This document shows, piece after piece, positions 60,596-61,057 of a stretch of DNA of 64,000 nucleotides. The stretch lies in the NCBI RefSeq assembly GCF_003334785.1, contig NZ_QOWV01000009.1; one strand, given 5' to 3'. A program made the translations under genes and the position numbers. Under the pieces are notes generated by a model. That model worked only from the letters and a program-made list of their open reading frames with translations. It ran no database searches and was not told where the DNA came from. The stretch's first letter is position 1; each line of letters opens with the position of its first letter. This stretch comes from Escherichia coli (GTDB lineage Bacteria > Pseudomonadota > Gammaproteobacteria > Enterobacterales > Enterobacteriaceae).

Positions 60596-61057
60596 GTCTG
60601 TATTTCCTTATCCAAAGTATGGAGAAGTTAACATTATGTTTCACAACTTCATAGTGTCTGGAAGTATTATTTTTATGACAAAGGAAATACTTTGCGCAAA
60701 TATTTTTTGTTTGATTACCAGCGAAACGTTTCTCTTATTTAAATAATTACCCACACAAAATATAGGCTTTTAATTATCAACCTTTATTATAAATAAAAGT
60801 TATGAAATATATTCTCTTCGTTAACTTATAATTAAGAGAAAAAAACTCACCGCATGGCCATTTAAGCCAGGAATAAATTAGCTTCCCGTTCATCATTTTT
60901 GTGATCTTGCGCACATCTTTGAGATAACGCACTTTCTTCACCAGTACGTTGCACGCTTTGTCAGCAGAAGATTGCAACAATCTTTCAGAAGGCCGCGAAT
61001 CCCCCGTTTTGTCGTGGTAATGTATGCACTTTGTGTTAGACGGGATAGGTTTTTAAG

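Follow-up and report, generated by a model that had tools for sequence, protein, structure and literature searches.

The iraP–ddlA spacer of Escherichia coli: a composite regulatory region probably formed by fusion of three ancestral intergenic regions after the loss of two genes

The divergent Escherichia coli genes iraP and ddlA are separated by a long AT-rich spacer, which was analysed here within a stretch of 64 000 nucleotides (contig NZ_QOWV01000009.1 of assembly GCF_003334785.1), hereafter called the window. We conclude with good confidence that this spacer is a composite regulatory region without a gene of its own, formed by the fusion of three ancestral intergenic regions after the loss of two genes. 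The explanation of the spacer length by this two-gene loss is new; it was missed by the original prediction, made from the letters of the window, which described a long AT-rich spacer presumed to carry two promoters. Also new is the origin of a strong, previously unexplained CRP site in the spacer, which is a promoter relic of one of the lost genes, related to mdtG, and is still constrained, as is the finding of a conserved RbsR-type box ahead of iraP.

Results

Position and composition of the spacer

The window is E. coli K-12-like DNA in the reverse orientation with respect to U00096. Its identity to the MG1655 record NZ_CP032667.1 is 99.97% (19 single-base differences over 64 kb), and the RefSeq annotation of the MG1655 record was transferred to it as the gene table. 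Published coordinates were converted as 461205 − x for U00096.2 and 461981 − x for U00096.3, x being the window position, and the conversion was verified with the 51-nt sequence of the transcription start site of Kim 2012.

The iraP gene occupies positions 60335–60595 (minus strand) and ddlA positions 61058–62152 (plus strand), which leaves exactly 462 bp between them. As originally predicted, this is the longest non-coding stretch of the window, ahead of the ampG–cyoA (459 bp) and brnQ–phoR (406 bp) intergenic regions, and it is strongly AT-rich. Its GC content (0.342) is the lowest among the long gaps (0.359 and 0.401 in the others; window mean 0.516), and the 400-bp segment of lowest GC content in all 64 kb (0.325) falls within it.

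Two genes present in other genera are missing between ddlA and iraP in Escherichia

The spacer was compared with the IraP-encoding loci of 80 species. The distance between ddlA and iraP is 450–464 bp in seven Escherichia lineages (the window and six fetched loci), about 600 bp in three Citrobacter isolates, and 1.6–2.4 kb in most other genera. The additional DNA carries two genes. The first encodes a protein of about 230 amino acids with an Extensin-like_C domain (PF06904, E-value 5e-52), and the second a major facilitator superfamily (MFS) transporter of 410 amino acids that is closest to MdtG (NF007372, 550 bits, for an equivalog cutoff of 571 bits). Salmonella, Citrobacter, Enterobacter, Kosakonia, Klebsiella and others have the extensin-like and mdtG-like genes; Klebsiella pneumoniae has two genes between its orthologues of ddlA and iraP. 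As Escherichia is usually placed among the genera with these genes, the simplest reading is that Escherichia lost them.

What survives of this segment in E. coli is the non-coding flanks of the lost genes. The E. coli spacer is collinear with the three concatenated intergenic regions of other genera (alignment scores of 288 with S. diarizonae, 298 with C. amalonaticus and 153 with E. cloacae, compared with 53–66 ± 9 for shuffled sequences), with break points at about 60975 and at about 60817–60838. The summed lengths of the three ancestral intergenic regions, 439–529 bp, match the 462 bp of E. coli. No coding remnant of the lost proteins was found in the E. coli spacer by tblastn (best E-value 1.6).

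We propose the following history. The ancestral order in Enterobacteriaceae would have been ddlA, facing outwards, then, in the opposite direction, the extensin-like gene, the mdtG-like MFS transporter gene and iraP. In the Escherichia lineage both middle coding sequences would have been deleted almost cleanly, and the three small ancestral intergenic regions would have been joined into a single AT-rich gap. From ddlA to iraP, the present spacer would then consist of the extended −10 promoter and leader of ddlA, the scar of the extensin-like gene, the orphan CRP block, a second, fast-evolving scar, and the ancestral iraP upstream region with a putative RbsR-type operator at −65.5 and the two iraP starts.

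In Escherichia, constrained segments of the spacer alternate with free ones. The proportion of invariant columns is 85% in the ddlA-proximal part, 48% in the first junction, 76% in the block at 60867–60917, 13% in the second junction, 94% at 60719–60736 and 84% in the iraP core and leader; the iraP core is also partly conserved beyond the genus. The blocks are present in 5399–5423 of 5426 complete E. coli genomes.

Shorter versions of the locus were also found in Citrobacter. Citrobacter amalonaticus S646 has lost the transporter gene and kept the CRP site, the leader and the first codons (..SWKVNLI.., positions 1940–2000 of its locus), and Citrobacter sp. NCU1 has lost both genes and kept the CRP site. 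Deletions at the ddlA–iraP locus seem to be independent and recurrent. In common with other gene-loss scars and relic regulatory DNA of Enterobacteriaceae, the locus has intact syntenic genes in relatives and independent partial losses, here in Citrobacter; it differs from other scars in that E. coli has no pseudogene fragment and retains intergenic parts only, one of which is still constrained.

In Citrobacter koseri and Klebsiella oxytoca (positions 1–2500 of the loci), a transporter-like open reading frame (ORF) and a second ORF of about 345–375 amino acids were observed upstream of iraP, and the 2.5 kb contain no ddlA. The stretch in front of iraP thus looks like a hot spot of rearrangement.

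A CRP-binding block is left from the lost transporter gene

On the iraP strand, the block at 60867–60917 starts with TGTGCGCAAGATCACA, which is followed by AAAAATGATGAACGGGA. At more than 30 loci of other genera, its 26-nt motif recurs, with 0–1 mismatch, in the gap that separates the extensin-like and MFS genes, about 120 nt ahead of the MFS start codon. Since this motif stands in front of the transporter gene elsewhere, the block is the CRP-dependent promoter region of the transporter, left behind in E. coli.

Taken by itself, the CRP motif is not significant: the 64 kb contain 2, with 1.9 expected. The site is nevertheless bound in vivo and in vitro: it is a high-confidence target in CRP chromatin immunoprecipitation sequencing (ChIP-seq) of enterotoxigenic E. 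coli (ETEC) H10407 (Table 1 of that study), and Footprint-seq on K-12 DNA (2026 preprint) gave a dissociation constant (Kd) of 1.2 nM and listed it among 'novel' high-affinity sites, assigned to ddlA/iraP. FNR ChIP peaks lie at 400328 and 400344, 30–46 bp from the CRP site, and iraP is classed as FNR-repressed. By these data the spacer is a regulator-bound region; the original prediction had left room for a regulatory region bound by nucleoid proteins. An FNR motif scan gave an 8/10 match at 60711–60724, which is not conserved and is 150 bp away from the FNR ChIP peak.

The CRP site is 245.5 bp from the distal iraP start (P1), 289.5 bp from the proximal one (P2) and, on the other side, about 121 bp from the start predicted for ddlA. 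None of the mapped transcription start sites is at a standard activation distance (−41.5, −61.5, ...) from it. It resembles CRP class II promoters and orphan ChIP-seq sites in that it has high affinity, is consensus-like, is bound in vivo and in vitro and, in relatives, is at promoter distance from the transporter gene. It differs from the usual CRP-dependent promoters in its position and in that the gene that it served is gone from E. coli.

It is possible, although we consider it rather unlikely, that the orphan block is still a working promoter, from which CRP (or FNR in anaerobiosis) drives a transcript that starts at about 60868 and reaches iraP with a leader of about 270 nt; in that case the relic would have been recruited as a carbon/oxygen input to IraP and RpoS. 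The high proportion of invariant columns in the block compared with its flanks (13–48%) and the binding of CRP are in line with such an activity, and the FNR peak at 400328–400344 coincides with the predicted −10 and start region, iraP expression being FNR-responsive. The distance from the hexamer TAATTT to the centre of the CRP site is that of the corresponding hexamer upstream of the MFS gene in other genera, so that a start near 60868 is possible and would fit class II spacing, and no terminator-like site lies ahead of iraP. However, the first base of TAATTT is a G in two of the seven lineages, FNR is reported as a repressor of iraP and not as an activator, and the CRP site could equally act on ddlA. 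No start was seen at this position in Cappable-seq or in Kim 2012; as both data sets come from glucose-grown cells, they are silent on a start near 60868.

The spacer contains no recognizable small gene

The original prediction left room for a small RNA in the spacer. An Rfam scan of positions 59800–61800 gave no match with E < 1, the matches with E > 1 being chance-level eukaryotic families outside the spacer. No terminator-like hairpin was found in the spacer, Term-seq shows no 3′ end within it, and Cappable-seq in glucose medium shows no extra iraP-direction start between 398889 and 400543. The small-RNA idea is therefore unsupported.

The statement that no ORF with a credible ribosome-binding site is visible was correct in substance. 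No Shine–Dalgarno sequence precedes the TTG start of the 67-amino-acid ORF that the Prokaryotic Genome Annotation Pipeline (PGAP) places in the spacer, but this ORF had not been mentioned. We reject it as a gene. Its frame is broken, by stops or frameshifts, in each of the six other Escherichia lineages, it has no match in NCBIfam (the search did not extend to Pfam or the large protein databases), and its conserved residues, ITKMMNGKLIYS, are only those encoded by the CRP/promoter block.

A small gene hidden in the spacer is thus highly improbable, whether as the PGAP ORF, as a shorter peptide (MMNGKL...) or as a small RNA missing from the annotation. The PGAP ORF is indeed annotated in thousands of E. 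coli genomes and the start ATGATGAACGGG is conserved, but after MMNGKLIYS the peptide sequence varies, the frame from that ATG differs in length among lineages, and the conserved codons coincide with the CRP/promoter block. Similarly, the hypothetical 273-nt leader folds better than shuffled sequences (z = −2.9), but the predicted hairpin arms of this long leader are not conserved.

A Rho-dependent (bicyclomycin-sensitive) 3′ end antisense to ddlA has been mapped at U00096.3 position 400341 (+), about 61640 (−) in the window (Adams 2021). It probably results from read-through of the yaiZ transcript, directed toward the spacer.

The AT-richness of the spacer is ancestral

The iraP-proximal intergenic region has a GC content of 36–37% in other genera. 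The AT-rich part of the E. coli spacer is collinear with this equally AT-rich region, which indicates that its AT-richness was inherited and is not foreign. The A/T tracts, which had been taken to suggest intrinsic curvature, do not exceed what the base composition predicts: 9 runs of at least 4 nt were counted, compared with 7.3 ± 2.4 in composition-matched shuffles, 30% of which reach 9. AA/TT phasing at 10–11 bp is weak; 2% of shuffles show as much of it (uncorrected). The proposed binding of nucleoid proteins also found no support in Tables S3 and S4 of Myers 2013, where no H-NS or IHF ChIP-chip region has a boundary at coordinates of the form 399,9xx–400,6xx. A scan of the spacer for IHF motifs gave no match, and a scan for the H-NS nucleation motif gave one weak 8/10 match.

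We therefore consider it very unlikely that the spacer is horizontally acquired or curved AT-rich DNA whose main role is silencing by H-NS or other nucleoid proteins. Its GC content of 18–34%, the weak phasing and the single nucleation-motif match could be quoted for such a role, as could the FNR signal at the spacer, which rises from 0.44 to 0.96 upon deletion of hns and stpA (Myers 2013); the tract count, the ancestral AT-richness and the ChIP-chip tables argue against it.

An RbsR-operator-like box lies upstream of iraP

The most conserved element on the iraP side is the AAGAGAAACGTTTCGCTG box at 60719–60736. In the same MG1655 record, the region upstream of rbsD contains a perfect palindrome, CAGCGAAACGTTTCGCTG, just ahead of the rbsD ribosome-binding site, which is known as the RbsR operator; in one preprint, this string co-occurs with RbsR. 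The iraP box shares 16 of its 18 bases with the rbsD operator, including an unbroken run of 14 (GAAACGTTTCGCTG), and its left arm differs at two positions. It is the sole match with at most 3 mismatches in the 64-kb window, for 0.04 expected. Matches with at most 4 mismatches to the 16-bp core were found 116–133 nt upstream of the iraP ATG in 59 of the 80 species loci, and control 300-nt chunks mostly gave 5–7 mismatches. The Salmonella loci checked were those of subsp. arizonae and diarizonae; S. enterica subsp. enterica was not included.

In the half-sites, RbsR is distinguished by a G (cGAAAC), where PurR has a C (CAAAC), and Cra needs TGAAAC. Judged by these consensus sites, the iraP box is of the RbsR type, with a G in both arms. 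The core AAACGTTT is common to several operators of the LacI/GalR family, as in the PurR and Cra consensus sequences, and another regulator of this family (PurR, Cra) might bind the box, or it might be conserved for an unrelated reason. The two differences in the left arm and the weaker left arm of Enterobacter, AGAAAAACGTTTCGCT, would agree with this. We nevertheless regard it as unlikely, given the 14 consecutive bases identical to the rbsD operator and the G in both half-site arms.

The iraP box thus shares with the rbsD operator an 18-bp palindromic layout and, like a real operator, it is conserved across genera. Its position is different: the rbsD operator is over or just downstream of the rbsD start, whereas the iraP box is centred at −65.5 of a promoter, which favours activation or modulation over simple repression as its role. 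We tentatively propose, with chances that we put a little short of even, that RbsR binds 60719–60736 and directly controls iraP, most simply by activation. Free RbsR would then raise the level of IraP, which would block RssB, and RpoS would be stabilised.

According to the abstract of a 2024 study in Salmonella (PMC10965054), RpoS-driven repression of succinate use needs RbsR to be complete, 'suggesting a novel mechanism of RpoS regulation'; the study also treats iraP. A search of this article for fixed phrases on the promoter, expression or transcription of iraP, or on RbsR binding, an RbsR box or an RbsR operator, gave no match. Of the two possible modes of control, activation agrees better with the Salmonella phenotype than repression. 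In the searchable literature three papers name both RbsR and iraP, and we found no text that ties RbsR to the iraP promoter, and neither the CRP relic nor the RbsR-type box is mentioned for iraP. Direct RbsR control of iraP is a specific, testable hypothesis and is apparently unreported.

Upstream of E. coli rbsD (positions 7815–7832 of that locus), the main operator is preceded, at a distance of about 80 bp, by a second box, TAAAACGTTTCGAG, which is half-operator-like and stands beside a CRP-like site, TGATCACATTTCCGTAACGTCACGA.

iraP promoters

The presence of an iraP promoter in the spacer, as presumed originally, was confirmed by published mapping data. Cappable-seq (M9 glucose, mid-log) detects iraP-direction starts at 400543 (score 298), 400561 (score 3) and 400587 (score 168), which correspond to 60662, 60644 and 60618 in the window; the two strong starts give leaders of 67 and 23 nt. 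The Cappable-seq evidence used here covers the iraP-direction strand. Kim 2012 (M9 glucose) reported in the spacer only the start at 400587, with the 23-nt leader, and no ddlA start. A sigma70 ChIP-seq peak is present at 400584 on the iraP side, with two others, at 400216 and 400265, on the ddlA side, where the signal is higher anaerobically (Myers 2013).

The promoter elements of P2 probably include the extended −10-like TGTTAACTT; the P2 stretch 60618–60633 is invariant in the seven Escherichia lineages. For P1, the hexamer AAAAAT is the likely −10 element, and in the alignment the ATAAAAATA block of this promoter is kept across genera. The 67-nt and 23-nt leaders fold no better than shuffled sequences (z = −0.4 and −0.6).

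Activation of iraP by ppGpp and DksA is described in the literature, as summarised in PMC10957080. The known ppGpp/DksA-activated iraP promoter (Bougdour & Gottesman 2007; Girard et al. 2018) is at the same locus as P1 and P2: both starts are less than 70 nt from the start codon, and the distal one has an AT-rich discriminator, as expected of a ppGpp-activated promoter. P1 and P2 may be the starts described in these two studies.

Other searches added little. A scan for consensus promoters and terminators gave 3 promoter-like sites, for 2.5 expected, and 0 terminators, and is uninformative alone. The supplements of SMRT-Cappable-seq, Rend-seq, Conway 2014 and Romero 2014 have no iraP or ddlA entry. 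The CsgD site reported for yaiB/iraP was not located with the CsgD consensus, and no claim is made about it.

In E. coli MLI108K1/K2, an IS1 element was observed between the Shine–Dalgarno sequence and the start codon of iraP, with the 10 bp of window positions 60598–60607 duplicated at the IS1 ends. E. coli 23CRST047/049 have a similar split match, with an annotated IS1 (annotation level).

ddlA promoter

In an alignment of the 130 nt upstream of ddlA (22 sequences), the motif TGnTAnnnT is near-invariant across genera. This conserved extended −10 and the sigma70 ChIP-seq peaks at 400216 (window 60989) and 400265 agree with the original presumption that the spacer also houses the ddlA promoter, with a predicted start near 61030. 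Further upstream of ddlA, other genera have in common ACATTATGGCAGAAGGC, the complement of which holds a CATAAT hexamer that points toward the extensin-like gene. This hexamer has decayed to AAGATT or CAGAAT in Escherichia, as expected because the extensin-like gene that it served is gone.

With the predicted core promoter of ddlA on one side and the CRP site on the other, the sigma70 peak at about 60940 could represent merged signals of the ddlA and relic promoters, or a second ddlA promoter.

Features of the spacer and of the rest of the window

The features of the spacer are listed in Table 1. Elsewhere in the window, the araJ–mak intergenic region (50838–50908) has one copy more of the 31-bp REP-like (repetitive extragenic palindromic-like) unit CCTGATAAGACGCGGCAAGCGTCGCATCAGG than the MG1655 record NZ_CP032667.1.

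Table 1. Window coordinates of features in the iraP–ddlA spacer.
Feature	Position	Strand	Description
Whole iraP–ddlA divergent spacer	60596..61057		462 bp, 34% GC
iraP proximal promoter P2	60618..60633	-	Start A at 60618 (Cappable-seq 400587, RRS 168; Kim 2012); extended −10-like TGTTAACTT at 60633..60625
iraP distal promoter P1	60662..60674	-	Start at 60662 (Cappable-seq 400543, RRS 298); −10-like AAAAAT at 60674..60669, then AT-rich discriminator AATACT
RbsR-operator-like palindrome (putative)	60719..60736		AAGAGAAACGTTTCGCTG on the iraP strand; centre 65.5 bp upstream of the P1 start
AT-richest 100 bp of the entire window	60735..60834		18% GC; belongs to the ancestral transporter–iraP intergenic region
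NagC site (in-silico prediction only)	60743..60765		aataattacccacacaaaatata; FITBAR benchmark table, position 400463 in U00096.2
PGAP 'hypothetical protein' WP_001300163.1	60777..60980	-	67 amino acids, TTG start; judged no gene
Junction from deletion of the mdtG-like gene (approximate)	60835..60866		Fastest-evolving; 13% of columns invariant at 60837–60866
Orphaned promoter block of the lost mdtG-like gene	60867..60917	-	CRP site, then AAAAATGATGAACGGGA, then −10-like TAATTT at 60880..60875
CRP binding site	60900..60915		TGTGATCTTGCGCACA; 9/10 match to TGTGA-N6-TCACA; ChIP-seq and Footprint-seq
Junction from deletion of the extensin-like gene	60918..60975		48% of columns invariant
ddlA promoter and leader	60976..61057	+	Extended −10 TGgTAATGT at 61016–61024; predicted start at about 61030; family-wide blastn conservation

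Discussion

The synteny of the locus in other genera, the collinearity of the E. coli spacer with three intergenic regions and its mosaic conservation argue for the fusion of three gaps after the loss of two genes. Several observations weigh against this interpretation or against parts of it. Individual nhmmer matches to the CRP block are weak (E-values 0.003–0.8), and the argument rests on the constant syntenic position of the block. The junction segments 60918–60990 and 60801–60866 gave no homologue outside Escherichia with nhmmer, and their origin is accordingly deduced from position only. The coverage of transcription starts is that of the iraP-direction half of Cappable-seq, in glucose-grown cells, in which a CRP-dependent promoter would be silent. 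The ddlA promoter is placed by ChIP-seq peaks and a conserved −10, at less than single-base resolution. Finally, this interpretation does not account for the strong anaerobic sigma70 peak at 400265 (window 60940; Myers 2013, Table S1), which precedes the predicted ddlA start by about 90 bp.

The spacer is an ordinary, already partly characterised regulatory region. As first described, a long AT-rich promoter region, the finding was routine, and three results add modest value to it. The CRP relic lends itself well to the question of whether regulator sites that have lost their gene are put to new use. The PGAP ORF, which thousands of E. coli genomes carry in their annotation, is an artefact over the CRP site. 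The near-perfect, deeply conserved RbsR-type box ahead of iraP offers a directly testable mechanism for the reported connection between RbsR and RpoS. Apart from these three results, the IS1 insertion upstream of the iraP start codon should separate the gene from its promoters and ribosome-binding site, and the strains that carry it are natural candidates for low IraP and low RpoS.

The RbsR-type box is the sole part of the spacer that a specialist might want to follow up. If RbsR does control iraP directly, this would provide the missing mechanism for the link between RbsR and RpoS in Salmonella, and would connect the general stress response with the availability of ribose throughout the Enterobacteriaceae.

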